A stretch of 63,411 nt of DNA, filler included, from Hausera hauseri (Eukaryota), in the NCBI GenBank assembly GCA_046269625.1. It is 11 parts of 11 records of this genome, joined end to end, with 100 filler letters (N's around TTAATTAATTAA, not from the genome) between each part and the next. Parts side by side here need not be neighbours in the genome. Positions count along the whole stretch, not along the records: positions 4,316 to 16,932 come from JBJURY010022230.1; 10 more parts are not named here. The stretch is one strand, 5' to 3'. The notes under the pieces are model-generated. The model was not told the origin of the DNA. It saw nothing but the letters and a program-made list of their open reading frames with translations, and did not search any database. A program made the position numbers and the translations under genes. Of this stretch, positions 4,749 through 27,433 are shown one piece after another (the stretch's first letter is position 1; each line of letters starts with the position of its first letter).

Positions 4749-5293
4749 CTGGATATTTGAAGCGTGTAATTTTTAAAAATTTTCTAAACACCCAATGTAA
4801 TTGAAAAATTATATTAAAGCTAAACATTGGAGTCTTCTATTTTTCTGTTTTCAGTAATTTGATAATTTTTTATTTCTCCAGGTAGTTTGATATACCTAAA
4901 TTTAATCGTAAGGAAGATACTGAGCTTAATTTTCCGATTGAAGAAATATTTTTTGTGATTCTGAAACACAAACTGTTGCTTAATCACTTGACATAGAATA
5001 TGACAAAATTTCAATTGCTTATAGGTTGATAACGTCGCCTGTCATCAAAACGAGAAAACAATAAAAGCTCAAAAAGAAGCAGAGCTAAAATTAGACAATC
5101 AGGACATTCGCATAAACATTATTTCGTATTTCTTCATTTTCGCCCTAACATTCAAAGGAATTTCTAAATTTTATAATATTTCAAATTATTTCAACCAATA
5201 TTCTGCTTAGGTTCGATTTCTAGTGTGTCGTAAATATCCTTCTACCACAAAGTATTTGTTAAATTAACAGTTTTCATAATCTCAAACTTAACA
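4749..5293 (+). repeat. 3' part of the 5' LTR (ends ...CTTAACA; AATAAA near 5060)
   Basis: Ends in AACA one base before the PBS, complementary to the TGTT start of the 3' LTR. No overlap is visible with the 242 bp of 3' LTR present, so the LTR is probably longer than ~790 bp and truncated at its 5' side. Confidence 0.6.
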
Positions 5294-5294
5294 T

Positions 5295-5312
5295 TGGTGT
5301 CCCTAGTGAGGA
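5295..5312 (+). promoter_or_regulatory. Primer-binding site, elongator tRNA-Met-like
   Basis: TGGTGTCCCTAGTGAGGA directly after the LTR end; resembles the complement of the metazoan elongator tRNA-Met 3' end (TGGTGCCCCGTGTGAGGA, from memory). Confidence 0.7.
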
Positions 5313-5411
5313 GGTACGCTGGCGTCGTATTCTTTACGCAACAAACATAAAGCACACTATAAATAATACATATGAAAATACGGATTTGGCAAGAAGCCCG
5401 CCCGGCTATGA

Positions 5412-6260
5412 ATGAGACTCTCAGGACAACAGAATCTCCAGATGTCCAGCTCAGGACTGTGCCAGCATAGGCAACAATGGCACAATGGTTTTACCATGGA
5501 CAAATTCGAAGACACACCAGATCAGGACTATAGTGAGTTCCTGATGCAGTATCATATGTATTACGAAAGCTTCGCATGGACAGACGAACTTAATATAAAG
5601 ATTATCCCTTTGTATCTCAAACGTATAGCACTTAGCGTTTACACACAAATCACAGATGATGACAAAGCTGATTGGGCTAACCTTAAGAAGTCCCTGGAGG
5701 AAAGGCTCTTAGCAGACCCATCAGGAAAGGGTCGAATTGGAGAATTCAACAGAAGATGTCAAGGAAAAGGCGAAACCGTGCAAGAGTTTGCATGTGCCCT
5801 TCAGAAGTTGGCTCAGAGAGCCTATGTAGATGAAGATACAAGGGAAGATGCTCTCCTGGCTCAATTCTGTTATGGTATTAACAAAGAAATACAGAATTAC
5901 ATTATTGTTGCAGATCCCAGCACATACAAAGAAGCTGTTAGTAAAGCAAGAAAGATTGAAATTAATTATGAAAGATTGGAGAATACGAAAAGGCCGCCCC
6001 GAAACGAAGATAAAAAGATGAAAAGTTTTCAACAAAAGAAAAATTTTCAACCAAGTCAAAATTTTCAGAAATTCCAAAAATTCCCGAATCAATCTGGACA
6101 ACAGAAAAAGGTTACTTGGCAGAATCAATCCCAGAATACTTGGCAAAATCAGCCTCAAAAATCTGCGATGAGAAAACCAATGGTAAACCAAGACGGACAA
6201 CCATTGTGTTTTGCATGTCAAAAATATGGACACATGGCCCGCTCATGTCCTATGCAAGGA
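5412..6260 (+). other. Gag region (retrotransposon capsid-like + CX2CX4HX4C nucleocapsid knuckle at ~6207-6248)
   Basis: RCQGKGETVQEFACALQKLAQRAY...LLAQFCYGINKEIQ is the typical Gypsy gag signature; zinc knuckle CFACQKYGHMARSC. Confidence 0.88.
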
Positions 6261-9200
6261 CAATCAAGCCAGAAAAAGAAGAATATTGATATGATCGGTA
6301 ACATATCGGACACTGATCATGAACATGAAACCACAGACACAGAACCTGAAGAGTCGATAGAAAAATTGCAACAGAAAATTAGAAGTAAATTAAAAGAGTG
6401 CAAAACGAATACAATTGAAGAAGATGAACATAAAATTGCTGAGTTAAAACAGCTGTATCTGGAATTAAAAGAGCAGCAAATTTGCGAAGAGCGACATAAA
6501 AAGACGAACGAAAATTCGATTATCGCTCCAGTAGGCAGACCCAAGAAAGTGCCTGCCTCGGAACCAGATACTGAAAAGAAAAAGGTCAAAAGAAAAGATA
6601 GACCATTGATACAAGAAGAAGATCTAAAAACTCCATCATATTCACCTTCCGGAAGCGAGGAAAGTGAAGGAAGTAAGAGGAGCGAAGGCGAACAGAGTGT
6701 GAAAATAAAAAGAGTAAGAAGAAAGAAAGTGACGGAATCGCCGCAGCAAATAGAAACTCCACCTGTTGATTTGGATCAACATGGCACAGAAATCGTACGA
6801 CAAATGATGAGATATGCCAACCAGGAATTGATAGATGGTGCACAGTTCAGGCAGGATCTCTCTATGTTGTTAACCCCAACGATCAGTCACCAACAATTCG
6901 CTGATTTATTGGATTTATTATTAATACATGCCGCCGATGGAAATCCCCATCGCAATTTCGTACGATACGTAATCTACCGTTACGCAGAGAGAGTGAGACT
7001 TGTCAGAGAAAATCCTGAAGTAAGGATCACGCTGCAACAGTACAATCAAGATTTTAGTGTTCTAAAAATGAAATCGTTGGATAATGTAGCTACATTGAAG
7101 CATAAAATCAATGAGACGATCCAAGGAGAATTAGAATTACGTTTTTATGGACGGACGCTATTGGACTACGAAACCATATACGAGGTAGGTATGTGGGAAA
7201 ACAGGTATAATCCAGTATGCCTGGCGCTAAGACAGAGCGAACAAGAAATAATAGATGAAATACTTGCCGAAGTTGCACAGAAAGATACTCAAGAAGCTGA
7301 ACCACATTATGAAGCTCAACGGACAGAGATTGGAACAAATATTCCTATATCAGAGCAGATTCAGACCGACAAAAGAGGCCGCGGAAGACCAAAAGGAACA
7401 ACGAAATTGTACCAATTGAAAGGCAGAAAAGCGAGAGATGACGAAGTTGTTCGGAGATTATTAACAACTGAAGAGGAGTATGATGCTGCTAATATCTCAT
7501 TAACGATGTTGTTGCAAACTCTTTTAGCTAGAATGAATCCTGCCTTCGTCGAATTTAACACCAATCTACAGATACCAGATTCGCTAATGCGGAATATTCG
7601 GAATGAGATAACAAAAATTAGTGAGCAGTTTGCAGATATCCCCACAGACGAGAGAATAAACGAAATACAAGAAAGAGATATACTCTCAAGAATGATGGGA
7701 ACGGGAATATCTAGAAACAAAATTATGACAGCTATATCCTATCTCTTATACAAAATAATAGTAATGAATGGTGTAAACCCAAACCAAGAAGAGATAGAAA
7801 GAAATATAGAAATAGCTACAAGAGCTTTGAAAGCTAACGTCGAAGGATGGGTTAAATGTCGAGGAGGATGGATCAATAGTCTGATTCAAATACAAGAATC
7901 CACATCTGCTATGTATGAACAAACAGAAAATCATCCACCACGTCTACAAGAAAGACAGCAACACCAACAACCAGATTTTGATTTATCTTGGTTAGTCAAA
8001 ATTATACCTATTCTTCTATTATTTAGTTTTATACCAAAAACGCATACGATTATCGCTTACGATTGCAGCCAAGCCAAAGAGGGACCGATATATTCCTTGT
8101 TGGACTTGGAAAAATGTCCGTATGCTAATCCAGCATCATTGACTACAACAACTGATAGAGAATATTATGTTTATCAAGAGTCAGAATTTGTAAGAACCAA
8201 GGTGAGAGAATGCTTTGTACGAAAGAACCACTTCCATTTTATTTGTGGATATTGGTATAGAAATTCAGCCATAGTAGAACCAACTACTCCGTTCGAACCA
8301 CTCGCGATAAGTAAACGAATGTGTGTTGAGGCCTTCGTAACAAAGCAGATTAACATCGGAAGTGTCCGGTTAAAAGCCCAGAAAGGAAAAATCACCAACA
8401 AAAGAATTTTTGTAGCAGGCACAATTGACAAAACAGGATATTGTAAAGGAGAATCCTACAATATAAATGGTGAAATTCTGGATAACATAGTAGCTATTGA
8501 GGATTATCAGGTTGAATTAAGGGAATATGATGCCTTGTTTGAATTGGAATCGGGAAAAATGATGACGTTTCCTGAATGTGACTATTACAATAAAGAATGT
8601 GATACAGGTGAATCTATCATGTCATATGAAGTGGATAAAGATCAATGCCGATTAGCATTACTAAGAAAAGGAAAATTTAATGAAACAAAAGGCCGAATGT
8701 TCAAAGAAGAAATATCAAAAAGTAGATTAGACCGAGTATCGGATATGGTTGATACTCCAACTATAGCATACTCAGCAGATCCAAGCGAAGGTATGAGATT
8801 TAAAATAGAAAGTGACACGAAAAGATGCGACCAAGTGGTATATCGAACTAACTATAAAGGTATATTTCTATCAACAAGCGAAATAAAAAAGGCACAGAGG
8901 AAAATTGATAAATCTGAAGTAAAGCCGCATCTATATTTCGATAATAAATTAGATTTTATTTATCACTTCCAACAAGAAAACATCTACTCCATGTATCGTG
9001 AAATAATATTGAACGATTGCAAGATGAATCGAGAAATAATCCGAAATAGAATATATCTATCAGCAATAACGGATGGTATAATAAAAGATCCTGCCGAATT
9101 ACCCGACGCAGAAGGAAAATTCGCACGGACAATGGGTGAAACGCTAGTTACATTCGAATGTATAAGAGTAGCTGTTAAATTAAGACCAATTGCAGAATGC

Positions 9201-12200
9201 ACTATGGAACTACCTGTTTGGTACAAAAACCAGTCACGATTTCTACAACCAATTACCCGAATATTACTGGAATCTGCGGAAAAACCATACGTGTATCAAA
9301 ATTGTACGTACACAATGTCGCCGGCATTCCGGCTAAGTGATAACTATTGGGTTAGGATGCCCAAAAAGGAGCAGATTACTCCGCCTCGGAAAATTAGTTT
9401 AATTAATCTAAAGACTGAACAACAGTATAAACCTCTAACAGAATTGGTAAAGATGGGTGTATATTCCGAACAAGATATGGAAAATCATAGAAGAATGATG
9501 ATGTTCCCTCAACAGAGACAAAAAGTTTTAACAGAGATGGCGATGAAAGTACTATCTGACCATGATGGAAAAGCTAATTGGGAAAACCTAATGGGACCCG
9601 ATTATGCCCAACGAATTGCCAAAAATATATTCGCAACCGCATGGGGATGGTACATGTGGTTTGGCCAGTTCAATTCTGGATGGCTAGGATTCTACTACAT
9701 TTTCGCATTTGTAAAAGCTATTCTTACAATGATAACTAAAGGTTACGGCATTAAACAAGCCGCCGGATGTACATGGAAAATCGTCTATGCATTGATTCCA
9801 TCTCTAGCTAGTTGTTTCCTAATAAAACAAGATGCTCAATGGAAACAAAAGAATAAAAATAAAAATGATTCAAACGACGATGAGGATATACCTCCAACAA
9901 AGAAAGTCAAGCCTCGTCCAAATCCACCTTCAAGTACAAGAAAAACATGGAGCTTGATCACAGCCCGAAGTAAGAAACGAAGAACGTTGCTATCAGACAT
10001 TCCACAAATGAAAAGATGGAATGAATATCCGATGGAACAATACCAGTTCATCACCAACGATTACGTAGATGTACATTACCCTAGTGACATGGAAAACTAT
10101 GATCCGAAACACATGAAGTTAACTTTTTACCCATCGGCTCCAAAAGAAGCTTTAATAACCAGTATAGATGGCGGTAAAGTAATACCCAGAACGGTAATTT
10201 GGATTGATGGACATCCCATTACCGCAATAATTGATACCGGAGCATCAGCATCGATGATTTCGCGAAAACAATTACCGGAATCGTTGAAGAAAAAGTTACT
10301 GAAACCAACAGAAGAACTTACGAATGTTGGCGCATTTGGAACAAAAGTGCAAGTTAGAGATCTAGTAAAATGCGAAACAAAAGTTCTTAATCAAAAATTT
10401 GAACAAGAATTTAGAGTAGCAGACGAATTGGTAGCCGAAGCTATACTCGGATGTGACGCATTGGCAAAGCTAAAAGATACGTGCATTCATCTGGAAACTC
10501 AGCAACTCCAACCATATAAAAAGGTGAAAAATGGAAAGAAAGATACAGTATCCGTTAAAGAAGATGTGCTGATACCAGCTAGGACAGAAATCGTACTCAA
10601 AGCCTTGGTACAAGGAAAAGATGAAGGTGACGTTTACATTGAACCAAACATAAACTTTATGAATAAAAACGAATTATGGATAGCTCACTCAATTGATAAT
10701 ATCCGAGAACAACAAGTAATTGTTAGAATAGCCAACGTTTCTAATAAGTCCAAATTGCTCAGAAAAGGAACAATAATTGCTTACGTATATACCATAAAAG
10801 ATATAGGCAGTAATGCGACAGAAGCCATTATATCGACCGTTCAGGAATTATCAGAATTCATGGAAAGACAACGGCAGAAACCACGGACAGAATGTGGACA
10901 GCGATTTGAAAATGAACCTTTAAACAAACTAAAAACTCATCTTAACAAAAACAAGAAAACTATCTTGTTAGTTAAGACTCCTATCAATTGGCCAGATTAT
11001 GACTTATTTGGTAGAGAAAGCGTACTAACAGACGAAGAGAAGGAAGGTATAGTTAAAATATTAGAGCAATATAAAAACGTGTTTGCAATAGACGAATATG
11101 ACATGGGAATAATACCTGTCATTAAGCACGAAATAAAACTGAAAGCAGGAATGGAAACGCCTATCAAAAAGAGACCATATCGACTCAATTACGACAAAAG
11201 AGAGAAGGCTAAGGAAATAATAGCCGAGATGAAACAATATGATATAATTAGACCAAGTAATTCTCCTTGGGCGGCACCAATTGTAATGGTACAGAAGAAG
11301 GATGGATCGATTAGAATGTGCGTAGATTATAGAGCCCTCAATGAAGTAACGATAGATAACACCTATCCGTTACCCAGAATCGATGAGATGTTGGACAAAT
11401 TGAAGGATAAAATGTTGTTTACTACACTAGATCTGCAGAAAGGATTCTGGCAGATAGAAGTTCAAGAAGAAGATAAGCAGAAAACTGCTTTTGTAACATC
11501 AGATGGACACTACGAATTTAACCGAATGGCATTCGGAATGAAAAATGCCCCGGCAACATTCCAAACAGCTATGGATATAATCACTATGGATGCCCCACAC
11601 ATAATGTGTTATGTAGATGACGTTATAATTGCTTCAACTGATTACAAACAGCATAAAGAACATCTGAAAGACATGTTGGAGAGATGCGCACTCCTTGGAA
11701 TAAAAGTGAGTCTCAAGAAATGTTGTTTCGCCAGGACAAAAGTTGACTTTTTGGGTCATACAGTGAGCAGAGAAGGTATCAATCCACAGATCGGCAAGAT
11801 AAACAAAATCCAGGATTTTCCAGTCCCAAAAACGGTCAGAGGAGTTCGAAAATTTCTCGGTTTAACAGGTTACTATCGGAAATTTGTTAAAGATTACCAG
11901 CAGATAGCTTCTCCACTACATTCATTGTTACAAGAAAATTCTAAACTTGTATGGACACAGGAATGCCAAAAAGCGTACCAACAATTAAAAGATAATTTAT
12001 TAGCCCCACCTGTACTGGCCTATCCAAATATGTCAAAACCATATTTCTTGGCTACGGACGCAAGCAAGGTCGGTATAGGAGTCGTTTTATCTCAAAAGGA
12101 TGATCAAGGACAGGAGCATCCAATATCATTTGGAGGAAGAAAGTTAAGAAAACATGAAAGAAACTATTCTACCATTGAACGAGAATTACTCGCGATAGTT

Positions 12201-15200
12201 TATGCATTGGAACAATATGGCCAGTATTTATCCGAAACCAAACCAATTGTCATATATACTGACCATAAGCCATTACAATGGTTGAAGAACCACAAAAACC
12301 CAAATAGTCGCTTAATGAAATGGGCTATGTTACTTCAGCCTTATAATTTAAAGTTTGAATACAAAATGGGTAAGGCCAACGCAAACGCAGATTATTTGTC
12401 AAGAATGCCCGAAGACTCAGGTCAAGAAAAAGATGATTTGGCAGATAAACCAGGCGTTATAGCAGCTATATGGACTATCACGGAACAGGAAAAGTCACTG
12501 TTACAAAAACAACAGAACGACGAACAAATAAAAGAGATTAAAGGATACATGCAAAAGAAAAAGATTCCGAATAATATTAACCTCTATACCCATCTAACAA
12601 AATTCGCTGAAAATTATGAGATAAAAGACGAGATATTATATTACAATCAGAAAGGAAAGCTGGTTGTAGTTGTCCCCCAAGAAGATATCAAATTACTGTT
12701 AACTCAATATCACGACGGTATGATGGGAGGACATCAGTCAGTAAAAAGAACGTTAGGAAGACTGAAAAGAAAATACTTTTGGTATACTATGCCAAATGAT
12801 GTGCAAGAATGGTGCAAAAGTTGCCCCATCTGCGCCACAAGAAAGAATACGGGCTCAAAAATTAAAGTTCCACTTAAACCCTTAGAATGTCCACCAGCCC
12901 CAATGGAATTCTCAGCGATGGACATTCTAGGACCCTTACCAATGACAGTTAACGGAAATAAATACATGTTAGTGTTTGTTGATTTATTTTCCAGGTGGCC
13001 GGTCGTAATACCAATACCAGATCAAAAAGCTCAGACGATTGCCCAAGCCTTCGTGGAAGAAATCGTATTTAATTATGGAGCTCCATCTAAATTGCTAACG
13101 GATCAGGCTCAAAATTTTACGGGAGAAGTAATGGCTGAGATTTCAAAAATATTTCAAATACTGCAACTAAAGACAACCCCTTACCATCCGCAGACGAATG
13201 GTACGGTAGAAAGATTCAATGGAATTTTAACAAACATGCTGGCCACAATGGTCAATGAACGACAAGACGACTGGGACGAATATATCAAGCCGTGTTTGTT
13301 CGCAATAAGGAATACAATTCATCCTGCGACAAAAGAAACTCCATTTTATTTAATGTATCTTAGAGACACGCACATGCCAGTCGACTTAGAACTCAAAACC
13401 CCTGTTTCACATTTAAAGGATATGGAGTATAAGGAATTGTTAGAAGAAAAACTCGGATATGTATGGGATTTAGCTTCGCGACACACAAAGATGTGTCAAA
13501 AGGAATACAAAGCTCGTTATGATGAAAAAGCTAAACCGCATAATTTCAAACCTGGAGATAAAATTATGTTGCACACTCCACTGAGTAAGAAAGGAAAAAC
13601 TCCAAAGTTGAATAGACCATATAAAGGTCCATATACAATTCAAAAAGTAGATGAAACCAACATCTATTTAAATAGGAACAAACGAAATAAGATAGACCCA
13701 ATAAAAGTCCATGTAAATCGATGCAAACAAGCACCGACAGAATCAAAAATAAGAAGTGAAGGTTTAAGTTTACCAGTAATGACACTAATGATGTTATGTC
13801 TAATAACATGTACATCGGCTGAACCATTAGACGTGGAATATAAAGCCGTCCAAGTAGGAAAGTATCCTTGTATAAAAATAATAGCTAATCGAAATCTAAC
13901 CAATGACGATTATATACCCATACACATAACAAAAAAATGGTCAACCAAAGTGGCTACTTCGGAACATTGTAGCCTATATTCCGGACATTCTACGCACGTC
14001 TGTTGCGGACTTTCTTTTGGGATTTCATATAGAATCCAGTATGCAATTTGGAGGAAAACCAATAATAAATGGTATAAATCCTATTTCTCATATCCTGGTT
14101 CTACTCACTATTTTAACGAACCGTATTTTCTCGTTGCATTTTACACAAAAATTATGAAAAATGGACCATGCGTAATGGCAGAACCAGAAGCCCCAATAAC
14201 AAGATATCGGACACTGGAATATCAGATTGAAAACAAAACGAACAAGATGGTTTGCAGACCAGATTACCAAAACCCGTATTTGTGTTGTCCCATAACCTAT
14301 GACAAAGAGTACACGATATATTATTGGACGACAAATGACAAAAAAACATGGTCAAAAACGTCAGATGGACCGGAAATAATGGTGAAATCTCCAAAAATGA
14401 AAACAACGACAATCATCTCAACAAGGATAACCACCTCACCATTCACTCAAAAGACAATGACTAATCCAGTAATAGAAGTAAAGAGAATTATTAAAGATCT
14501 AGATATAATTATCCAGTCAACTACACATTCCCTCATCATCACAGTATCAGATCTAAAAACTACGAATGTAAAATTCGAATGCTTCCTTCACCATAGGTTA
14601 GTTGGTGAAGGAATAATAACACCAGACGAACCTACATCGGCCTGTACATTTTTGAAAGCCGACACAAATTATAAAGTCTTGATTACCGAATTAGATGAGG
14701 ATGGTCAAACTCTACAAGTTGTCAAACGAAAAGAAAAGACGTCGAAAGAATTGCTCATAACTACAAGAAGAGTTATAAAAACAACAACCACTCAAAAACC
14801 AAAAAAGATTGATAAATACTTACTAATAATTATTGCACTAAGTACCTCAATGTTAATAATGATTACACTAGCCCCAATAATTATCTGCTATACTAAAATA
14901 AGACGTAGAACACAAAGAACTAATGACATGATAAATCAATTAAAGTTACTAAGACAAAATTCCTTAGACGAATCAATAAGTGATATAGATGCGCCAAATA
15001 ACAATGAAATCCGCCAGGCTGAAAAGCCAGGCGAACCCCAACGGCGAACTTGCCCGTTAAGAGATACCACAGTATGCCTTTGTACTCAAGTACGAGACGA
15101 GGCCGCTAAGATACTTGCGACCTACATGAAACACAGATATATCACTAAAATACTCGCGATTAATAAAAAACAGCCAAAGTGCAAAAACTTTTTCGTATCA

Positions 15201-16703
15201 AAAATCTGGCCGCTGTTAATATTAATTCTTTTAGTCGGCGAAGGAACCGAACAAGCAGAGCGACCAAACAGTTTCTACCACAATATGGTAGCCAACTTGC
15301 TTGCAGCTAACAAGAATTTCATCTATTACGAAAATGCCGCAATGGTGCCCAACCATCTAAAAGGGCATACAGTGAATCAAAGAAGTGGCCTTATAATCAG
15401 GCAACAATCTTATACGATAAAACTATCCGATCTGGTTGATATTACTAAGAGAACAATAGCTATCTACATTTCAGTGGCCAAAGGCACTATTCAATTGAAA
15501 AGTAAGGCTAACCTAAATGAAATAACCGATACTCTCCTTGTCCCATCACCAACCACAATTAGGTTGGATGAAAAATTCATTAAGAATGTCGAACTAACGA
15601 TAAGGGTAGTAAATGAAGTCTACCCCATAATGTATATTGAAATCATTAGGCAAGAATCACTTCCTTCTGATGAATCAAAGAAATTCAATTATTCCATGCC
15701 AATCCCAGACGACACCCTACTGGAAAAGGGTATGTCATTTGAAAGATTATTGAACATACGCAAAGAAGATATAGTCATATTAGCAACGAACGTGGCATAT
15801 TTAATGGAACCAGTTCGACGATCGGAAGTGGCTCTTATAGAAATTACCATTCTGGACGTGGACGGTAAAACTATCCTGGACAAAATATTATGTCCGCGCG
15901 AAAGAATCGATAACTATAATAGCCATGTAACTGGCTTGAGAGAGTCAAACATAATAGGACAGATGGACCTCGTAATAATGTACCCACAAATTAAAAGCCA
16001 CCTTATGGGAAAAATCGTTGTAGGGATGAATGTATATTATGACCTCAACAATGCTCTCCGATGTAGTCACCACCTTGTGATGGGTATAAGAGATCTACTT
16101 CACCATCAAAAGGCTAACCCAAAACAGGAGTTTAATGCCAAATACATTTTAATGGCATTCAACAATGGTGTCTACCCCAAAAGAACGAAGGAAAGGGCAA
16201 AAGTAATCTTGGATATATACAACACAATCCCCGAATACAGGATTAAAGAATCAACACTTTCCACAACTAGCTTAACCCCAGCAGATAGCCCGCCAAAAAC
16301 CTTGGGTATGATGAAAATTCCCAAAATCAAAAATAAATCTATATCTCCATCCCAAGTTGCTACAAAAATAAATGATCAACCTTCAACATCCTCGCAAAAA
16401 TGCCTACCAAGTGAGAATGACCCACCAAAGGAAGTCTCGGCTTATTCGGCCAAATCTTCGACCGAAGTTAAAGAAATACAATGCGAAATGCCCGGATCAA
16501 CAGAATCAATAGTAATCGACTTAACAAAGAAAAGAAAATCATTTTCCCCCAAAGAGACAGTTACATTCAAACGAAGAATCAGAGAAAAAAACCAGTGGCT
16601 CCAGATTGACTCAGTCTGCTATAAACGACCAGATGGTTCTTATAAGATCTACCCTCTGAAGCCGAGGACGGCTTCATCTAAGGAGGGAGATGTTCAGAAA
16701 TAA
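5412..16703 (+). CDS. Single Gag-Ubl-Bcl2-Env-Pol-FN3/TM-exonuclease polyprotein (3763 aa)
   Basis: Uninterrupted ORF with CFACQKYGHMARSC, AIIDTGAS, YPLPRID, YVDD, LATDAS/ERELLA/YTDHKPL, H-H-C-C zinc motif, DILGP/LLTDQA/VERFN and YKGPY motifs. Confidence 0.95.
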   Translation: MRLSGQQNLQMSSSGLCQHRQQWHNGFTMDKFEDTPDQDYSEFLMQYHMYYESFAWTDELNIKIIPLYLKRIALSVYTQITDDDKADWANLKKSLEERLLADPSGKGRIGEFNRRCQGKGETVQEFACALQKLAQRAYVDEDTREDALLAQFCYGINKEIQNYIIVADPSTYKEAVSKARKIEINYERLENTKRPPRNEDKKMKSFQQKKNFQPSQNFQKFQKFPNQSGQQKKVTWQNQSQNTWQNQPQKSAMRKPMVNQDGQPLCFACQKYGHMARSCPMQGQSSQKKKNIDMIGNISDTDHEHETTDTEPEESIEKLQQKIRSKLKECKTNTIEEDEHKIAELKQLYLELKEQQICEERHKKTNENSIIAPVGRPKKVPASEPDTEKKKVKRKDRPLIQEEDLKTPSYSPSGSEESEGSKRSEGEQSVKIKRVRRKKVTESPQQIETPPVDLDQHGTEIVRQMMRYANQELIDGAQFRQDLSMLLTPTISHQQFADLLDLLLIHAADGNPHRNFVRYVIYRYAERVRLVRENPEVRITLQQYNQDFSVLKMKSLDNVATLKHKINETIQGELELRFYGRTLLDYETIYEVGMWENRYNPVCLALRQSEQEIIDEILAEVAQKDTQEAEPHYEAQRTEIGTNIPISEQIQTDKRGRGRPKGTTKLYQLKGRKARDDEVVRRLLTTEEEYDAANISLTMLLQTLLARMNPAFVEFNTNLQIPDSLMRNIRNEITKISEQFADIPTDERINEIQERDILSRMMGTGISRNKIMTAISYLLYKIIVMNGVNPNQEEIERNIEIATRALKANVEGWVKCRGGWINSLIQIQESTSAMYEQTENHPPRLQERQQHQQPDFDLSWLVKIIPILLLFSFIPKTHTIIAYDCSQAKEGPIYSLLDLEKCPYANPASLTTTTDREYYVYQESEFVRTKVRECFVRKNHFHFICGYWYRNSAIVEPTTPFEPLAISKRMCVEAFVTKQINIGSVRLKAQKGKITNKRIFVAGTIDKTGYCKGESYNINGEILDNIVAIEDYQVELREYDALFELESGKMMTFPECDYYNKECDTGESIMSYEVDKDQCRLALLRKGKFNETKGRMFKEEISKSRLDRVSDMVDTPTIAYSADPSEGMRFKIESDTKRCDQVVYRTNYKGIFLSTSEIKKAQRKIDKSEVKPHLYFDNKLDFIYHFQQENIYSMYREIILNDCKMNREIIRNRIYLSAITDGIIKDPAELPDAEGKFARTMGETLVTFECIRVAVKLRPIAECTMELPVWYKNQSRFLQPITRILLESAEKPYVYQNCTYTMSPAFRLSDNYWVRMPKKEQITPPRKISLINLKTEQQYKPLTELVKMGVYSEQDMENHRRMMMFPQQRQKVLTEMAMKVLSDHDGKANWENLMGPDYAQRIAKNIFATAWGWYMWFGQFNSGWLGFYYIFAFVKAILTMITKGYGIKQAAGCTWKIVYALIPSLASCFLIKQDAQWKQKNKNKNDSNDDEDIPPTKKVKPRPNPPSSTRKTWSLITARSKKRRTLLSDIPQMKRWNEYPMEQYQFITNDYVDVHYPSDMENYDPKHMKLTFYPSAPKEALITSIDGGKVIPRTVIWIDGHPITAIIDTGASASMISRKQLPESLKKKLLKPTEELTNVGAFGTKVQVRDLVKCETKVLNQKFEQEFRVADELVAEAILGCDALAKLKDTCIHLETQQLQPYKKVKNGKKDTVSVKEDVLIPARTEIVLKALVQGKDEGDVYIEPNINFMNKNELWIAHSIDNIREQQVIVRIANVSNKSKLLRKGTIIAYVYTIKDIGSNATEAIISTVQELSEFMERQRQKPRTECGQRFENEPLNKLKTHLNKNKKTILLVKTPINWPDYDLFGRESVLTDEEKEGIVKILEQYKNVFAIDEYDMGIIPVIKHEIKLKAGMETPIKKRPYRLNYDKREKAKEIIAEMKQYDIIRPSNSPWAAPIVMVQKKDGSIRMCVDYRALNEVTIDNTYPLPRIDEMLDKLKDKMLFTTLDLQKGFWQIEVQEEDKQKTAFVTSDGHYEFNRMAFGMKNAPATFQTAMDIITMDAPHIMCYVDDVIIASTDYKQHKEHLKDMLERCALLGIKVSLKKCCFARTKVDFLGHTVSREGINPQIGKINKIQDFPVPKTVRGVRKFLGLTGYYRKFVKDYQQIASPLHSLLQENSKLVWTQECQKAYQQLKDNLLAPPVLAYPNMSKPYFLATDASKVGIGVVLSQKDDQGQEHPISFGGRKLRKHERNYSTIERELLAIVYALEQYGQYLSETKPIVIYTDHKPLQWLKNHKNPNSRLMKWAMLLQPYNLKFEYKMGKANANADYLSRMPEDSGQEKDDLADKPGVIAAIWTITEQEKSLLQKQQNDEQIKEIKGYMQKKKIPNNINLYTHLTKFAENYEIKDEILYYNQKGKLVVVVPQEDIKLLLTQYHDGMMGGHQSVKRTLGRLKRKYFWYTMPNDVQEWCKSCPICATRKNTGSKIKVPLKPLECPPAPMEFSAMDILGPLPMTVNGNKYMLVFVDLFSRWPVVIPIPDQKAQTIAQAFVEEIVFNYGAPSKLLTDQAQNFTGEVMAEISKIFQILQLKTTPYHPQTNGTVERFNGILTNMLATMVNERQDDWDEYIKPCLFAIRNTIHPATKETPFYLMYLRDTHMPVDLELKTPVSHLKDMEYKELLEEKLGYVWDLASRHTKMCQKEYKARYDEKAKPHNFKPGDKIMLHTPLSKKGKTPKLNRPYKGPYTIQKVDETNIYLNRNKRNKIDPIKVHVNRCKQAPTESKIRSEGLSLPVMTLMMLCLITCTSAEPLDVEYKAVQVGKYPCIKIIANRNLTNDDYIPIHITKKWSTKVATSEHCSLYSGHSTHVCCGLSFGISYRIQYAIWRKTNNKWYKSYFSYPGSTHYFNEPYFLVAFYTKIMKNGPCVMAEPEAPITRYRTLEYQIENKTNKMVCRPDYQNPYLCCPITYDKEYTIYYWTTNDKKTWSKTSDGPEIMVKSPKMKTTTIISTRITTSPFTQKTMTNPVIEVKRIIKDLDIIIQSTTHSLIITVSDLKTTNVKFECFLHHRLVGEGIITPDEPTSACTFLKADTNYKVLITELDEDGQTLQVVKRKEKTSKELLITTRRVIKTTTTQKPKKIDKYLLIIIALSTSMLIMITLAPIIICYTKIRRRTQRTNDMINQLKLLRQNSLDESISDIDAPNNNEIRQAEKPGEPQRRTCPLRDTTVCLCTQVRDEAAKILATYMKHRYITKILAINKKQPKCKNFFVSKIWPLLILILLVGEGTEQAERPNSFYHNMVANLLAANKNFIYYENAAMVPNHLKGHTVNQRSGLIIRQQSYTIKLSDLVDITKRTIAIYISVAKGTIQLKSKANLNEITDTLLVPSPTTIRLDEKFIKNVELTIRVVNEVYPIMYIEIIRQESLPSDESKKFNYSMPIPDDTLLEKGMSFERLLNIRKEDIVILATNVAYLMEPVRRSEVALIEITILDVDGKTILDKILCPRERIDNYNSHVTGLRESNIIGQMDLVIMYPQIKSHLMGKIVVGMNVYYDLNNALRCSHHLVMGIRDLLHHQKANPKQEFNAKYILMAFNNGVYPKRTKERAKVILDIYNTIPEYRIKESTLSTTSLTPADSPPKTLGMMKIPKIKNKSISPSQVATKINDQPSTSSQKCLPSENDPPKEVSAYSAKSSTEVKEIQCEMPGSTESIVIDLTKKRKSFSPKETVTFKRRIREKNQWLQIDSVCYKRPDGSYKIYPLKPRTASSKEGDVQK
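7020..7230 (+). other. Ubiquitin-like (beta-grasp) domain within the polyprotein
   Basis: VRITLQ...DNVATLKHKINETIQGELELRFYGRTLLDYETIYEVGM matches the ubiquitin pattern DTIxxVKxKI...RLIFxGKxLxDxxTLxDYxI; the relative at 24055-25095 has YVRDVREWL...RFYFRGRILDELEQLIDVGI. Confidence 0.75.
7500..7885 (+). other. Bcl-2-family-like helical domain within the polyprotein
   Basis: BH3-like LMRNIRNEI, BH1-like GISRNKIMTAISY (consensus GxNWGRIVALFxF) and BH2-like VEGWVKCRGGW (consensus LxxWIxxxGGW), in the correct order with plausible spacing. Confidence 0.65.
7989..9830 (+). other. Envelope glycoprotein, chuvirus-like / herpes-gB-related class III fusogen
   Basis: Signal peptide WLVKIIPILLLFSFIPKTHT, mature start IIAYDC...YSLLDLEKC, Cys-rich ectodomain, GETLVTFECIRVAVKLR...CTMELPVWYKNQSRFLQPITRIL motif typical of chuviral-type glycoproteins, C-terminal TM segments. 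Confidence 0.8.
10180..13740 (+). other. Pol: aspartic protease (DTG ~10233), RT (YVDD ~11610), RNase H (~12040-12400), integrase with HHCC, DDE and GPY (~12690-13740)
   Basis: Canonical Ty3/Gypsy motifs and domain order; catalytic residues appear intact. Confidence 0.95.
13770..14890 (+). other. Second membrane protein: signal peptide, three FN3-like Cys-containing domains with a Thr-rich linker, TM helix
   Basis: SP LPVMTLMMLCLITCTSA; repeats ending CCGLSFGISYRI / CCPITYDKEYTI / CTFLKADTNYKV (FN3 LxPxTxY tyrosine-corner pattern); TM YLLIIIALSTSMLIMITLAPIIICY. Confidence 0.65.
15770..16240 (+). other. DEDDh 3'-5' exonuclease-like domain (REX4/ISG20 type), catalytic motif I degenerate
   Basis: IEITILDVDGKTILDKILCPRERIDNYNSHVTGL...IKSHLMGKIVVGMNVYYDL matches the REX4/ISG20 pattern; the expected DxE is replaced by LATNVA. 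Confidence 0.72.
16680..16690 (+). promoter_or_regulatory. Polypurine tract
   Basis: AAGGAGGGAGA immediately before TGTT; the relative on the minus strand has AAGGAGAGGGGAA|TGTT. Confidence 0.8.
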
Positions 16704-16932
16704 CATTTCGATTTACGGTTTAATTAACCGAATTTGTGAATTAATTAACATTTTGTTTTCAAAAACAATTTTAATTGATTTTAGACTATGGTTTATTTTG
16801 TTTTCGTGATCTGGTGTTATCTTTGTTTTTGTAAAAATTATTTTTATTCGGCTTCATTTTTGTTCTTATCCCTGATAAAGCCAGATGTATTTTTCATGAA
16901 AAATGCCATTTTTGTTGATTTCTAAAGAGGTA
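16691..16932 (+). repeat. 5' part of the 3' LTR (truncated by contig end); contains the ORF stop codon
   Basis: Starts TGTTCAG directly after the PPT; AT-rich and non-coding after the stop codon. Confidence 0.7.
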
Positions 16933-17032: not shown

Positions 17033-17600
17033 AGTTGAGCTAACTGCTGTGCTAATGTGTTGTTGTTGTTGGTAACAGCTGAGGAAATGACTGGTTGAGT
17101 GTGTACATGTAAAATATCGTATGTTTTGTCTGCCAGTTCAGCCAATTTGTCAAGAGTCGTCGAATATCCGACGACGGTAAGTAAGGCCGTAATTTTTATG
17201 GGCAATGTGTTCAAGATGTAACGTCACAAAAAATCGGCATTATGTTGTTTAGTTACGCCAAGTGTTTAAAGTTGAGCGAGTGAAATTGTAAGGATATCTG
17301 ACGGTTTTTGCGTTCCCATAGCATTATCGTTAAAGAAACGGTGAACTATAGATACCATGGATAATTCGGTAAGCTTTAGAACGGCGTTGTAAAGATGGGC
17401 GTATGGGTCGGGTTGCTGCAAGATGTCTAGTAAGTCATGAATGGACGTTTTTACTGTAGTCAGTAAAAGACAAGATAGGTTATGAGCTTTGGTTATCGGA
17501 TCAGTGATGTCGTTGCATTGTAGCCAAAACTGGTGGAAGTTAGGCCATGTTTTGCTAGAATTTTCTTGGTCTATAAAATATTCGGTAAAATGTGAGGGCA
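17033..17600 (-). pseudogene. Gypsy gag N-terminal remnant (DUF7041-like family)
   Basis: WLQCNDITDPITKA...QPDPYAHLYNAVL...MGTQKPSDIL...LP...TLDKLAELADK; homologous to 42440-42659. Confidence 0.65.
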
Positions 17601-18599
17601 TAGTATAAGTGGTTTTAAGCGAAAAGATAGGATCAGCGGAAGAAGTTTTGTTGGTTGATTTTGGGTAATAGACAACGGATTTATGTTTTGTAATGGCCTT
17701 ATCTGTTGTATCGTTGGTTGATGAAGGTAGCATGCCACCACGGATTCTGGGGTTGATGTCAAAGAGGAGGAAAAATGGAGAAAATGTGATGTCTCGAAAA
17801 CTCGTAAAAGTGAATCCATTGTTAGTCAGGTAAAAATCGGATATAAGTTATTGTGCGGATGTAGTCGTGAAAGTTGGTAAGGTGTATATGTTTTGTTAAG
17901 TATAGGGTATGTACCAATGTATTATTTAAAAAACAGAAAATGGAAAATGGTGGTAGGAGGTAACCGGATGGGCAGTGCGGCACCCCAGTACACCACAACC
18001 CGCGCCCCACAGTCGCCAGGCGAGTCACCGGGACCGTGGTTTCGCCACGACAGCGCTGATTCACCGGAGCAAAGCAGTCCGTCAGATAACCGAACCGCAG
18101 AGACGAAATTTATTTCCATGGTGGGATCGACGCACTGAAGTGCAGAATCTTCGTAGGCATTCGTTATAAAAGGATTCGAGAAAAATCAAGTGATGTGCCG
18201 AGAAATGTTCTGAAAAGTAGTCTTTTCCTTCGATGAACAATTTCTGTTGTTGAGAATTAAGAAAGGACGTCTTCCGTTCAGAGTACTTATTGAGTAGAGA
18301 AGTCGGCCTATTTAGCGGACTTATCAAATTATATATGTAAATAATTGGGGCTATAGGACAAAGTACCTCCATGTACGGAACATTGTCAATTGAAAGAAAA
18401 TGTAAAACAATAATAACAGTTAATCTAGATACTTCGTTTGGCCAAATATTATGCTTTAAAGATAATAATGTGTGTGCTTTAGACCAAAAGAAGAGCTTGA
18501 ACATAAAAAAGGAAATATTCTGAATTTTATTTGACAAAATTTCGTTCCAAAAACATGTACTCCTGGTGATATAAGTTGTGTTAATCACCAAAATATTTG

Positions 18600-21464
18600 C
18601 ATATACTGTTCGGCACCATTCTTCAGCTCGACGGTAGTCTTTTCCAAGTGAACGAAGAACAGAAGTTATTTGATCTGAAGTTTTGTACAAATTTTCAGCA
18701 GCTATAAATAATTTAAGTTCTTCTTCTGTTATTCGTCCGGTTTTGTTTTGTACGTTGATCTTATAAACTCGAGAGAAACTGAGTTGACGATTTTTTAACA
18801 TTAACGTCGTCTTCGATTTGGATGCATTAATCATCAAAATAATTCCATTGAGGGTATTTTTGAATGTTTTGAATGAGATTTTCAATTCATCCGATGCTCC
18901 TGGGAGTGGTCCCTCCGAGCTATTCGTAGGTTTCGAATAATATGAGTAATTTGAACCGTTAAACAAAACCGAATCAACTACTTCAATACTCTCTTTTGGT
19001 GATTCTAATTTTATGATTTCGGATATTTTTGATATCGAACGAGTTTTTTCGTCGTTCTCTTTGATTCGTTTCAACAGTTTCGTTACTACGGACTCGTCGA
19101 TAACTTTGCTCCAATACAGGACAGACAATCTGATTCTATACACTTCGATTTCATCAATAAATCCCGTGAAGGTCCTTGAGAAAATTAAGGCTTTAGGAAG
19201 CAGTTTCGAAGGTCGTTTGTTTGATACATATTGACACAAAATATTAACCAGATTCGACCAAATTAAAAGGCCTTCATCATCATCCCAAGACAATTCAACG
19301 AACGTCCATTTCGCCGTTATTCGAAAACTGGTAAAACCACTCGAAAACATGATTAGATTTTTGGATGTTTTCTCGGAAATTTCTACTTTAAAAGTATATT
19401 TCAAAACAATTAGTCGAATGATATTAAAAATGAAAATGTTCGACTTTAGATCGGTAAATCGTATCCAAAATCTAATGGAAAAGCAGTTCTTACAGCCAGT
19501 AACAATCTCACTGAAACATGCGGAAGTACCAGTGAAAACTGGGCGTTGTTGAAAGAAACAAATAGACCAACAACACCTACGGTTTTGAAAACATTCGTAT
19601 TTTCAGTAGATCCGAAATTATGATTCAATTGATAATGAAAATCGTCCATATGTTTCATCTCATAAGCTAAATTTGTTCAATTTGCAGCAACGGATTCAAG
19701 GTCATCTACGATAACAGATGCACTTTGGACAACATGGTTAGGATAATGTAACCCAACAACCAGTTGCGTGTTCCTATTACCAGAATTCGTGAACTCCGCT
19801 ATAGCAGTCATTACATGGCCCATCAAGACACCATTCACGTACACATTCAAACCATCATCAAAACGGCATCAATCATCAAAAACGTGCCACTGTAGAACTT
19901 TAAGGACCATCTTCCCAGTTAATAACCAAAATTTGTTGCGAGTTTTCAGCTGAATGATGAGATTCAAAATTACTTCCGATCATGAGGAGTTGATTAAATA
20001 AATATATCTGCTGTGGTGTTGCTAAATTGTCTGGCCGGAACCGAAGACGAACGAGTAGTTCACGACGACAGTTTTCAACATTAATAAAACAATCGGGAGA
20101 CCAGTCATGTTTACTACTACGAAACAAGGACCAAAATTTTCTAGACTGAATCCCTCGCCAAAATTTGTTGAAATTACTTTTCCGTCATTGATGGCTATGT
20201 TAAGGTCATTGATAGGATTAAAATTTGTGTTGAATGGTGCAGAATGCAACATTCCATCATTATTCTGCCAACTGCTGAGTTCACTATTAGACAGAGATAT
20301 TTCCAGGACACAAGAAGAATGGATTCTTGACTTTAATGGAATAATTTTTGAGAAACTGTTTAACATCATCAAATCAATTTGGTCTGTTCGTGAAAAATAA
20401 ACAGCATAGACACTCGAAAATCGGACAATTAGCGTTTTCTCTATCATAGATGATTTATTAATAACCATAAACCAGTAAGAACTATGTGAGGAATCTGCAT
20501 GGTTAAATGCAATCGTTAAACAATTACTGAGATAAATTACAACATTATTGAACTCGAGTAAACATTTGTAGTTTGCAACTATCGATCTGTTATGTAGTTC
20601 AACATTTAACTCCCAAATGGATCCGTTAAAGATTGTACTAGAGTTTGTAGTGAATATAAATCGGTCAAACTCTACGTTCGTCAATTCACGTAAATTACCA
20701 AAGACAATGTATTTCGATGATATAAATGTAGGTATTATTTCTTTTAAAACGGTGTATTTATTTGTCGTAGCAAGAAGATTCGGATCGAGATAAAGAAAGA
20801 GGTTTGATCCATAGACCAAATCTGCCAACAAGGTGTGTCTTATTAGTTGACTTTTATTTTTTAAGAAGACGTAACGAATCCAAAATTGATATCTCAAAGC
20901 TTTACGATGAAAAATATTTTTGAAGCGCGTTCGTCCTTTAGGTGGCAACAAATCCAACCAATTTCCTGGTCGCATATTCAGTCCTTAATTAAATACCGCA
21001 TCGGTAAATTGTAGCGGCGTGGAGGAATTGATAATTTCCATATGTTTATCCGTAATGGATATGTCTTCTTTAAGGTCGAATTCGCAAATAACATCGTCAG
21101 TTGGCTTAGTACATTTTCCTTCGGACACTGGCAAAACCGTATACCCTGCATCGAAAAAGCGCAAACGCAATCAGAACTGCACGCCGTGCAAAAATCAGAT
21201 TATGCAAATCGTACGGATTTCCAGACGGAACAACCGCAACTCTGGAACACGGTATTTCTTATTAACATAACAACATAACCACAGATGATTTTCGATTTAA
21301 AAATTGTTTGATTACTACCGAAATAAATCAAATCCCCTTCGATAAAATACTCAAGAAACAGATCATTATCATACATAAAATTCGGCCGTTTAAATCCAAT
21401 AAACGTTTCAATCTCATCGGGAAGAAATGTTGAATATACCACGAGAACGTACAAATCCTCGGTA
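18600..21464 (-). pseudogene. Laminin-G-domain extracellular protein (neurexin/CNTNAP-like), fragmented by frameshifts
   Basis: Collinear beta-rich ORFs with LamG-like motifs (RLRFFDAGYTVL; DELKISFKTFKNTLNGIILMI; LNVYVNGVLM; LLVRLRFR); no clear introns. Confidence 0.45.
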
Positions 21465-21966
21465 NNNNNNNNNNNNNNNNNNNNNNNNNNNNNNNNNNNN
21501 NNNNNNNNTTAATTAATTAANNNNNNNNNNNNNNNNNNNNNNNNNNNNNNNNNNNNNNNNNNNNACGAATGATTTTGTTGTTGATACAAAAAAGTTTTGT
21601 TTTAATAATAGTTTTTTTCTTATTTTGAAATTTGATGTCAGCCATGTTTTTGATCTTACGAGTCAATTGAAATCTCTAATAATATTTTGAAGTAAATTTG
21701 ATTTTCTCCATTTTGGATTTTGCCGTAATTCAAATTAATTTACTGTGCATACATTTTCTATTCCGCATTGTTTCGTTAATCGGAGTGAACAAATATTCAT
21801 GATTTTTGCAGCAGCTTTTGAACTTTTACTGTTATGGTTATGAAAATCGCAGCCTCAGTTATTACCCTTCATGCTTTTTCTGGAACAAACGAAAATGAAC
21901 CTTGTTGTTGTCTGTTGCAGATAGATAATTTTCATTGTTTACTTGGCTGTGGATGGAACTCAAATT

Positions 21967-24900
21967 TTAACAAATAATTTCTAAATTGAGTAGTAAAATG
22001 CGCCAAAAAAATCGATACTGTTCTTCTATCACCCTGTGATGTTCATCATTTAGGAGTTTTAGCTGATTCTGTCGGAAAAGGTAGCCTCGGATGACCACTT
22101 TAATCATTTGTATTAGGAAATATATTGCTAAAAATCCGGATGCAGCTTGCCCAAAAATTAAAAATCTTCCCAAATTTTCTAGAGTATTTCTGCGGTTACT
22201 CACTGATAATGATTTACGCCAAGTAATGATTCTAATTTTGATTGATATCGAGTATCACGTACTACGGAGGCTATGACTCGATTCAATTCGTGTGTCCATT
22301 GTCGCGGAAAAGCGAGAAATTGTCTAAAAGCTTCAATTTTCTTAGGCCTTTCGATGACGTGTCTTGAAATTTGTCGTCTGTAATTCCTTTTGCGAGATTT
22401 GTTCCTGTTAATTTATGTGGAGTGACAGTAATGCCTCCATTTGGCAAACTAACCCAATCTGTTTCACTACACCTAAACATGGGTTCTCCTAAGCTTGCTT
22501 TACAATCTTTAAGGATTCTTGGTTCAGTTGCGTTGTCTAATAATACTCTGGTGAGCGGCGTGGCTAATCTTGGAGTAATCTGGTAAATAACTAGAAGTTC
22601 CTTCATGCAACGTTTTTCCTCAACGTTGATTGGTACATTTCTTTTCTCACATTCGTAAGTTAATAGAACTTCACTGGTAACTCGATCAAAAATTCCTTCC
22701 CTCATAGGAATTATTGGGGATGCAAATTCGGGATTAGCGTAGATAAGAGCCTGTTTTGTCCTCATGATTTCCATATCCAATGTACAACCATTGGTTATCA
22801 TTTTATGATATAACTCGGTTATTCCAACTTGTCCTTTGTAATAGAAATAATCGTCTCTGTTTTTCAGGTAGTCCTCAATCCAAATATCCTGCGTTTCTAG
22901 CTTGCAAGTCTTCTCATTTATTTTTGTTTCTGGGACGAAGAACGCTTCATAGTTGGTAGCGAACATCAGTACTTCAGAACAAAGGGATCATTTCTTTCTT
23001 AATAAATTTTAGTCCATGCTGGTCGGAGATCAATATATTAGGTGTTGGGTGTTCTGCTACATCCTTGCGTGTCTTTGAGTCTAAATATCGTTTTCCGGTA
23101 GTTTCATTCAATTTTAATTTCTTAATTTTGATGAAATTACAGTTTTTCCAGAGGGAGGTTCCCATATTATGACCGAATTCTAAAAGCACAGATTCCGTCT
23201 TGTAAATGGTATTTTTGATTCTCGGTATATAGTTGATTCTCGACACTATGGAACATTGTTTTCTGTACTCGCATCTCCGATTCATAGAAATCTACGACCA
23301 CTACGTTTGCTTTTAATCCTTTTCCGGTGTCATATTCTGCTCCATTACAATGTCCGTTATGCATGTCTAACCTTCTAACCACTACTTGATATGCTCTAAT
23401 TATCTTTCCTGGTTGCATCTCTAGTTCCATACTATCCCATTTTAATCTCCTGGTTTCCTTGGCCTGCTTACAATGCTGGCGTTCAAAATTCATTGGGATT
23501 GGAGGAGTTGTTGGTTTGTTTATTGAAGAATGTCTATGCATTAATCTACAGTGGAAAATGTTACGAGATCGTTTCAACATACATTCCATTCCGTCCAACG
23601 ATATTAATTCTTTCTGTTGATAAAACAAGTAACTTTTTTCCCTTGTTTCCAGTTTATGTGGTCTGGCATCTTTGCATACTTCTAAATCCATTAGAGAATA
23701 TTTCTGTCCTAGTTTAAACTTATCTCAGTCGTAGACAGTAACAGCACCCATATGCTTTATTAACATCATCGAAGTAAGCAAGCTGATTAAGAAATTGGAT
23801 TTGTTTTTCCCGTTACTATTATCCGTCGTTGTCAAATTACGTAGCATATCTTCGAGTCTATTGCTATTTCCGGACCGTTTGTCTTCTTCCTTATCGAATA
23901 GTCTCGACCAATTTACATCGCATGGTAGCTTTCTCGCCGCTCTTCGCGCTAAGCTCGTAGCTGTATTAATTTCATTCTCTCGATTACGGTTTATTTTGAT
24001 AGCTAAGTACAGTAATACTTTTCTTAATTCTTCAGTGGTGTTTTCCATCATGATTTATTCGATTACTGATTCATCGGTTAAGTTACTTTTCGATAATATA
24101 AAACGTGAACTTCTCATTATCCTAGCTCCATTGAATATCGCCCTCTCTTTATTGTCTAATGTGTCGCCTCGAAGGCTTGAATAATTTACAATACGTACTA
24201 AATTCTTCATTAATTCGTTTAATTCTTCACTGCCCGTGCTGAGGGTAGGAATCGACATCTGTCTAAATTCTCTAATCAATTCGCCATTATAGTCAGCTTC
24301 TTCTCGTGTCTTTTTAGGTCTACCGACTGGGCGCCTCTGTCGTGGAACATTGGTTATCGTTTCACTTAGTGGCATTGAATTCTTGTTGTATTGTTCCTTG
24401 TCCTCATCCGTTTGTAAATACTCAAAATACATTGCAGCGTCTCGGACTACCATAATTTGTCCTACGCATTGCTTTGTCTTGGCATTACGCATGGCTTCTT
24501 CTTTTGTCTGTTTATTAGCTATTATTGCTACTATTCGATTTGTTTCGTCAGGGATAATCCCGACATCTATTAGTTGTTCTAGTTCGTCGAGTATTCTACC
24601 TCTAAAGTAAAATCTATAATTTAACTCGTTTGTTCCACCGTTATTTAATAACCATTCTCTTACATCCCTCACATAGGAATATGTAGTTAATTCACATTTT
24701 TTTTCGTCCATCCACTCGGGCGATATCATTACTTTTATCGTTACCTCAAGTTTAGCCCTCAAGATTTTAGCGTATTTCCTTATCAAAAGTTCCGGCACCA
24801 TGTTATAAATTGTGTTCTCACTAGATAATTTAGTCAATGTCGGAATAAGTTGTCTTAACTTATTTTCAGTGATGTTTACGTTAATTAGTTCGATTAAATC

Positions 24901-27420: not shown

Positions 27421-27433
27421 CGTTCAAGCGCCA
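27421..27433 (-). promoter_or_regulatory. PBS-like sequence (tRNA-Lys-like TGGCGCTTGAACG)
   Basis: TGG start two bases after the putative LTR end; resembles the tRNA-Lys PBS TGGCGCCCGAAC. Confidence 0.5.

Follow-up and report, generated by a model that had tools for sequence, protein, structure and literature searches.

A predicted second membrane protein with probable fibronectin type III-like domains behind the integrase of a fusogen-bearing gypsy element from Hausera hauseri

Introduction

Element A, an env-bearing Ty3/gypsy retrotransposon of GAG-ENV-POL order from the genome of Hausera hauseri (assembly GCA_046269625.1), encodes behind its integrase a second predicted membrane protein, whose ectodomain domains very probably have a fibronectin type III (FN3)-like fold. 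The window, that is, the whole stretch of DNA analysed, comprises 63,411 nucleotides (nt) in 11 parts with N-linkers between them; a methionyl-tRNA synthetase exon and attractin-like sequence within it point to an animal source. The contig of element A (4316-16932, JBJURY010022230.1) is almost wholly taken up by one open reading frame (ORF) of 3,763 amino acids (aa) at 5412-16703 (+), delimited by an ORF scan and Pfam, which encodes in order gag, a ubiquitin-like/AT-hook-like region, a signal, a fusogen, pol, the second membrane protein and C-terminal domains. All features of element A given below lie on the plus strand.

Reverse-transcribing elements are thought to use one env gene for cell entry, and outside Drosophila the way in which env-bearing gypsy elements of invertebrates select target cells is an open question. 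An ectodomain that is separable and varies, next to a fusogen that is conserved, would offer a handle on it, as the isolated ectodomain could serve as a probe for receptor and target tissue. The arrangement, in which pol is sandwiched between two membrane proteins, is one that annotation pipelines stopping at the integrase would miss.

A second membrane protein in frame with pol

Element A has the protease, reverse transcriptase (RT), RNase H and integrase (zinc finger and core) in gypsy-type order at 10185-13190 (PF00077, PF00078, PF17917, PF17921 and PF00665), followed by the GPY motif of the integrase C-terminal module at 13626-13634, and its pol matches those of the gypsy type (Metaviridae). 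Between the gag CCHC zinc knuckle (6207-6251; PF00098, E 1.6e-4) and the protease lies a fusion glycoprotein of the gB/chuvirus type (Monjiviricetes; 8001-9887; PF24664, E 1.4e-85), with hydrophobic segments, including a transmembrane (TM) segment, towards its C-terminus and internal signal sequence 1 ahead of it (7977-8033; Kyte-Doolittle (KD) hydropathy 2.01), as in the known gB-type GAG-ENV-POL errantiviruses. The cassette that follows pol occupies the slot where env normally sits, as the original prediction had noted, the actual fusogen being placed between gag and protease.

This cassette continues in frame from the integrase in the order GPY motif, signal, domain 1 (D1), domain 2 (D2), linker, domain 3 (D3), Thr stalk and TM helix. 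Signals and TM segments were called by KD hydropathy and the -3/-1 rule. Internal signal sequence 2 (13746-13820) has a basic n-region, an h-region whose hydrophobic segment (13764-13820) reaches a 19-residue KD mean of 1.84, and a T-S-A cleavage site at -3/-1; an in-frame Met stands 14 residues upstream of the predicted cleavage site. The 332-residue ectodomain contains three domains of about 91-98 aa, of which D1 (13821-14114) and D2 (14115-14396) are of a Cys-Cys type, and the membrane-proximal D3 (14478-14750) carries an L-x-x-x-T-x-Y strand motif. A 27-aa linker between D2 and D3 (14397-14477) is 30% Thr, against at most 20% in any 30-mer of pol, and a short Thr stalk with the TM helix (14751-14891) completes the protein, the TM segment itself (14817-14891; KD 2.41) being followed by a basic stop-transfer stretch. 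A signal-like segment, an ectodomain and a TM segment are thus all found in one ORF past the GPY motif, as had been proposed, and hydropathy and the -3/-1 rule both fit the predicted layout of a type I membrane glycoprotein. Together with the probable FN3-like fold and the PF24664 fusogen in the same ORF, this layout supports the earlier proposal of a second surface protein beside a fusogen.

Other parts of that proposal have to be amended. A Thr-rich linker is present, its main part lying between D2 and D3 and a second, short stretch before the TM, but 'mucin-like' overstates its length. Three domains of similar size are likewise present; they are, however, of two types rather than three equal repeats, with D3 unlike D1 and D2. 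The C..Y motif, which was said to end each repeat, instead lies about two-thirds along each domain. The pattern, devised after viewing the sequences, has three matches in the polyprotein, all within the cassette, against 0.035 expected in shuffles, and 11 matches in six frames of the whole window, five of them in the two cassettes found there.

The 2.9 kb downstream of signal 2 are open, whereas 91 and 68 stops interrupt the other two frames of the plus strand, and the relative synonymous codon usage of the ectodomain correlates with that of pol (r 0.84) as closely as that of the fusogen does (0.82; both from small samples), which suggests long residence.

The ORF runs on past the cassette for about 600 aa. 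A third hydrophobic segment (15180-15245; KD 1.84), with a weak counterpart in the second element of the window, element B (KD 1.5), is followed by a beta-rich domain (15246-15731) and by an ISG20/ISG20L2-like domain of the DEDDh exonuclease type (15774-16226), recognized by profile search and alignment (two-row profile against the PDB, E 1.5e-9). The domain lacks D and E at what we take to be the position of the first DEDDh motif, and its counterpart in element B (29294-29710, -) also lacks the first-motif acidic residues. The ISG20-like domain of both elements is possibly an RNA-binding pseudo-nuclease; if the third hydrophobic segment is used as a signal, this domain would come to lie in the lumen.

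A conserved slot with differing ectodomains

Element B (contig 27070-33432, -) has an integrase merely 36% identical to that of A, followed by a GPY motif and a cassette in the order of A (30672-32023, -), made up of a signal (about 32023-31916), D1, a frame change, D2, a Pro/Thr linker, D3 and a TM segment (about 30728-30672). The original prediction had placed a second copy at 30471-31990. The copy is real and has the same layout, but it is split over two frames and reaches slightly past that interval. The end of the beta-rich domain and the ISG20-like domain also recur in B (29294-29770, -; 27% identity to A over 146 aa, E 4e-8).

A search with pol among proteins of 2069-6586 aa returned 28 matches, two of which carry PF24664. 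These two proteins, P0004 and P0005, are 41-42% identical to A in pol and are single gag-env-pol polyproteins that continue past the integrase with an extra retropepsin, a signal, an ectodomain, a Thr-rich stretch, a TM segment and a basic tail. The extra retropepsin copy lies directly between integrase and signal 2 (2467-2558 in P0004), and P0005 has three protease stretches. The ectodomains themselves differ. That of P0005 (258 aa) contains one probable FN3 domain, recognized by its strand motif, and then a long Thr/Ser/Pro stalk, whereas that of P0004 (98 aa) is Cys-rich, with seven Cys, and unrelated to the FN3-like ones.

A signal, an ectodomain, a Thr-rich stalk and a TM segment thus follow the integrase in all four elements examined (A, B, P0004 and P0005), and all four signals obey the -3/-1 rule. 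The layout is kept in four of four while the ectodomains differ, and this argues that the post-integrase slot is conserved and its ectodomain exchangeable between lineages. Two hydrophobic segments after the integrase are found in all three full-length pol proteins with a gB-type env and in none of the 26 other pol matches (three have one), a control that is imperfect because many of the 26 are partial or mis-joined gene models. A tree of RT-RNase H groups A, P0004 and P0005 with support of 90/81, below the threshold for strong support. A search with the fusogen among proteins of 1050-2995 aa found P0030-P0032, none of which reaches RT or integrase, so that they are uninformative about this slot.

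Fold of the ectodomain

FN3 domains are seven-stranded beta-sandwiches of about 90 aa whose hallmarks include an L-x-P-x-T-x-Y motif between strands E and F and a Trp in strand B. A motif of the former type is clear in D3 of A and B and in P0005, while D1 and D2 keep the Tyr alone; the strand-B Trp is not evident in the domains examined. Weak evidence from four partly independent methods converges on, and supports, an FN3 fold, short of proof.

A model of D2 built from a four-row alignment has seven strands, at a predicted local distance difference test (pLDDT) score of 69. Among 48,161 chains it matches D2 of IFNAR2 (Z 8.3, root-mean-square deviation (rmsd) 2.5, 76 residues aligned), and further top matches are FN3 domains of Tie2, contactin, the prolactin receptor and Robo; 14 of the top 15 titles name FN3 domains or FN3-built receptors, the receptors being assigned to that class on our assumption. 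Against fibronectin FN6, the D2 model gives Z 8.6 (rmsd 2.4, 81 aligned). For D1 and D3 the likeness comes from a model of the entire ectodomain folded as a single sequence, which is of poor quality (pLDDT 42, about 50 for D1, with D2 unresolved), at Z 6-7: 72 residues of D3 align with fibronectin at Z 7.0 (rmsd 2.3), and D1 matches FN3 domains of cytokine receptors (Z about 6). In Foldseek, the top nine rows for this model are fibronectin fragments (best E 1.8e-3). An Atlas language-model search with the ectodomain of A returned PF00041 in all ten rows listed, with scores of 0.86-0.88, under the reliable range, and rows for the P0005 ectodomain are mostly fn3, with a score of just 0.77. Finally, a three-row profile of the D3 type (A, B and P0005) finds fibronectin as its best match in the PDB (E 0.036), with FN3-bearing proteins in 10 of 11 rows. 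The FN3 likeness originally proposed is supported in this way by structure models, Atlas rows and a PDB profile, with no significant sequence match.

Cytokine receptors, named beside FN3 as a comparison to make, fared less well. Class I/II cytokine receptors carry a WSXWS motif or a receptor-specific Cys pattern, and WSXWS was not seen in the translation of A. The structural comparison favours FN3 likeness but no specific likeness to cytokine receptors, as the FN3 domains of fibronectin, of receptors and of adhesion proteins score within 1 Z unit of one another and none of the receptor families stands out. The viral structure library BFVD yielded no match at E<=0.001, the best being a phage tail protein (E 0.027).

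D1 and D2 of A are similar to each other in a shuffle test (z 4.6, p 0.001, 2000 shuffles) and give E 0.063 in a profile-profile comparison, whereas D3 shows no significant similarity to either (z -0.4 and -0.6). Between elements, D1/D2 of A and B score z 3.5, 4.5 and 7.6, but A-D2 against B-D2 merely 0.4; of 21 pairwise domain comparisons, four had p<0.01. When D1 and D2 of A and B are aligned, a Pro, the Cys-Cys and a Tyr are invariant in all four rows.

What the second protein may do

Signal 1 would direct the gB-like fusogen into the lumen of the endoplasmic reticulum (ER), and the fusogen TM would bring pol back to the cytosol; signal 2, past the integrase, would then direct the FN3-like ectodomain into the lumen, where the second TM would anchor it. 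The polyprotein would thus be threaded through the ER membrane twice, and signal peptidase and the element's own protease would release the parts. The extra proteases just before signal 2 in P0004 and P0005 would fit a need to free the integrase from the membrane. A second type I membrane protein, presumably displayed at the surface, would in this manner be made together with the fusogen, and on the particle or the producing cell it could bind a target-cell surface molecule while the gB-like protein does the fusion.

Herpesviruses and some mononegaviruses have class III fusogens that depend on separate receptor-binding proteins, and FN3 domains frequently serve in adhesion. A partner that varies beside a conserved fusogen is what a tropism protein would look like, and attachment or adhesion is hence the best reading; that the second protein is a separate attachment or adhesion protein beside the fusogen has, in our judgement, about an even chance of being right. 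Somewhat more tentatively, this lineage of endogenous gypsy retroviruses may have evolved a herpes-like two-component entry, in which a conserved gB-type fusogen and a swappable receptor-binding protein are made as one flavivirus-style polyprotein. The swappable part could then consist of stacked FN3 domains, of one FN3 carried by a Thr-rich stalk or of a Cys-rich domain, and pol would form a loop in the cytosol, flanked by two luminal glycoproteins, a picture to which we would give rather less than even weight.

A number of points weigh against an FN3-built attachment protein. Pfam fn3 has no match in any domain of A or B or in the whole of P0005, and PDB sequence searches give none for the single-sequence ectodomain or the D1/D2 profile. 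Ectodomain homologs number zero among 1.84 billion representatives and zero among long polyproteins (658 candidates), and no host donor gene could therefore be named. The Atlas scores of 0.88 and 0.77 fall below the recognition threshold, the best Foldseek E-values (1.8e-3 and 6e-2) are not significant, and Z-scores of 7-8.6 may reflect merely a generic beta-sandwich arrangement. The 332 ectodomain residues hold only two N-glycosylation sequons, and the third hydrophobic segment at 15180-15245 complicates the topology downstream. The sample is four elements, of which A, P0004 and P0005 are relatives and hence not independent. Furthermore, other class III fusogens, such as rhabdovirus G and baculovirus gp64, bind cells unaided.

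The ectodomain might instead act on the producing cell as a decoy or interference protein that sequesters a host ligand or prevents re-infection, the cassette serving counter-defence rather than entry, which we consider unlikely; that the dead ISG20-like domain behind it would, in addition, shield RNA seems equally improbable. The best structural neighbours include FN3 domains of the cytokine receptors IFNAR2, PRLR and IL20R2, D1 and D2 form a tandem with conserved Cys pairs, the catalytically degenerate ISG20-like domain lies further on in both A and B, and extra ORFs including DEDD nucleases are known from rotifer LTR (long terminal repeat) elements, in the part of the source covered (PMC5408684). 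However, the receptor matches tie with fibronectin, contactin, Robo and Lar, so that specificity for receptors is not apparent, the cassette persists in P0004 and P0005 although these end soon past the TM, without an ISG20-like domain, and the second protein is by prediction membrane-anchored, not secreted.

A different question is the route of expression, as the protein could be made separately from a spliced or subgenomic RNA, as is gypsy env, its in-frame fusion to the integrase being incidental. Such a route is compatible with any function, and we regard it as rather doubtful. In A, B and P0005, a Met stands 14, 36 and 34 residues, respectively, ahead of the predicted cleavage site, and in A an AG-ending pyrimidine/A-rich stretch lies just upstream of that Met. 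On the other hand, A, P0004 and P0005 all keep the frame continuous with the integrase, no Met occurs within 67 residues in P0004, and the extra retropepsin between integrase and signal in P0004 and P0005 fits polyprotein processing.

Less probable still is a fusogen partner that chaperones, shields or triggers the gB-like protein, as do gH/gL, prM or E2, and does not itself bind the target cell. The strict co-occurrence with a gB-type env in the sample and the 1:1 synthesis from one ORF would suit such a partner, whereas the swapping of unrelated folds between lineages with homologous fusogens is a poor fit to a fixed protein-protein interface. That the cassette is a mere passenger, either a fragment of a host receptor, captured recently and of no use to the element, or a chimera of the assembly, is very improbable and largely refuted: the contigs are draft and FN3-bearing host type I proteins abundant, but the frame is open over 2.9 kb with element-like codon usage, the order recurs in element B despite its distant integrase and the slot in two outside relatives, and a host homolog of the ectodomain was not found in the sequence searches.

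Relation to known systems

Two-part entry with a fusogen and a separate binding protein is exemplified by herpesvirus gB with gD and gH-gL and by paramyxovirus F with HN or G, while the polyproteins of flaviviruses and alphaviruses are cut by signal peptidase and alternate internal signals and anchors. The likeness of element A to these viruses is an analogy in workings, no homology of the second protein having been found in BFVD. In the literature searched, which did not cover Repbase or Sacco et al. 2022, no retroelement was found described with a second membrane protein of FN3 type; Sacco et al. 2022, reportedly the original description of GAG-ENV-POL elements with a gB-type env, might mention a C-terminal extension.

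Ty3/gypsy 'errantiviruses' of GAG-ENV-POL order with an HSV/gB-type env (HSV, herpes simplex virus) occur in Nematoda, Bryozoa and Platyhelminthes, and the transmission mechanism remains elusive for most elements, according to the parts of that study covered here (PMC13524379). Element A shares with them the gypsy pol order and a gB/chuvirus-type env, with signal and TM, between gag and pol; after the integrase, those parts mention a chromodomain alone, whereas A has a second signal-FN3-TM protein and a pseudo-nuclease (PMC13524379). The words 'fibronectin', 'FN3' and 'exonuclease' do not occur in the main text and seven supplements, figures and deposited sequences being outside the word search (PMC13524379). 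Gypsy elements with a gB-type env in GAG-ENV-POL order are hence already known, and the second membrane protein is the apparently new part, not found in the literature searched.

Other LTR elements offer partial parallels, each within the portion of the source covered. Anakin elements, like A, carry a captured chuvirus-class glycoprotein, but they belong to BEL/Pao rather than gypsy and a second surface protein was not seen in that portion (PMC7642597). Vesta, Juno and TelKA of bdelloid rotifers resemble A in that accessory products, TM proteins and DEDD exonucleases among them, follow pol; they differ in using a separate ORF3, with one type per family and a DEDDy nuclease with intact catalytic residues, and, unlike A, have no FN3 and no gB-type fusogen alongside (PMC5408684). 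The sORF2 of the MDG1 group is, like the cassette of A, a retrotransposon membrane protein and acts in env-independent cell-to-cell transfer, but it is a small FAST-like fusogen that replaces env, whereas the extra protein of A is a predicted folded ectodomain accompanying a fusogen (PMC11952523).

Termini and relatives within the window

Upstream of the ORF of element A, a site resembling a primer-binding site (PBS), with a TGG start one base past a CA (the putative 5' LTR end), lies at 5295-5312, and a polypurine tract followed by TG (the putative 3' LTR start) at 16680-16692, with the ORF stop just inside. No match between 5' and 3' LTRs was seen, and no LTR pair was recovered because the contig stops about 240 nt past the polypurine tract. 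Element B likewise has a polypurine tract and then TG (28008-28019, -). Troyka LTR elements, defined by CG...CG termini in the part of the source covered (PMC12440569), were rejected for A and B, in both of which the tract is followed by TG.

The stretch of A between gag and fusogen, at about 7040-7500, has a domain with weak likeness to ubiquitin (PF00240, E 0.056) and an RGRP motif of AT-hook-like kind, and it is kept in a third, broken element (24055-25113, -) and apparently in P0005 too. This third relative (21565-26969, -) retains gag-like, ubiquitin-like and PF24664 pieces (E 1e-12) and may start at a PBS-like site and gag-like start at about 27433, past the putative LTR of B, in a tandem arrangement.

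Other sequences in the window

An apparently intronless attractin-like gene at 39291-41773 (+), with a kelch propeller (E 1e-7), laminin/attractin EGF domains (E 5e-11) and a TM-like segment, is interrupted by in-frame stops and has a gag-like fragment just downstream; it may be a retrocopy or a further surface protein that was captured. Two long ORFs of 506 and 320 aa at 17266-20984 (-), neither with a Pfam match and the shorter rich in N-glycan sequons, sit upstream of a fragment that shares 43% identity with 42485-42659 (+), and both of these fragments we take to resemble the N-terminus of a gypsy gag. Inverted ORF copies at 56564-57806 and 60361-61419 (74-87% alike, no Pfam match at 0.01), presumably related to a DNA polymerase B-like transposon protein, flank a piggyBac-type transposase fragment (59184-60161; PF13843, E 1e-13). 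A degenerate TC-rich microsatellite of about 4 kb (46890-50850) is the source of many spurious ORFs, and a 15-bp tandem repeat of seven or more copies (54536-54685) lies within a 177-aa minus-strand ORF. An exon of the host methionyl-tRNA synthetase is found at about 62210-62335 (+; PF09334, E 1e-6).
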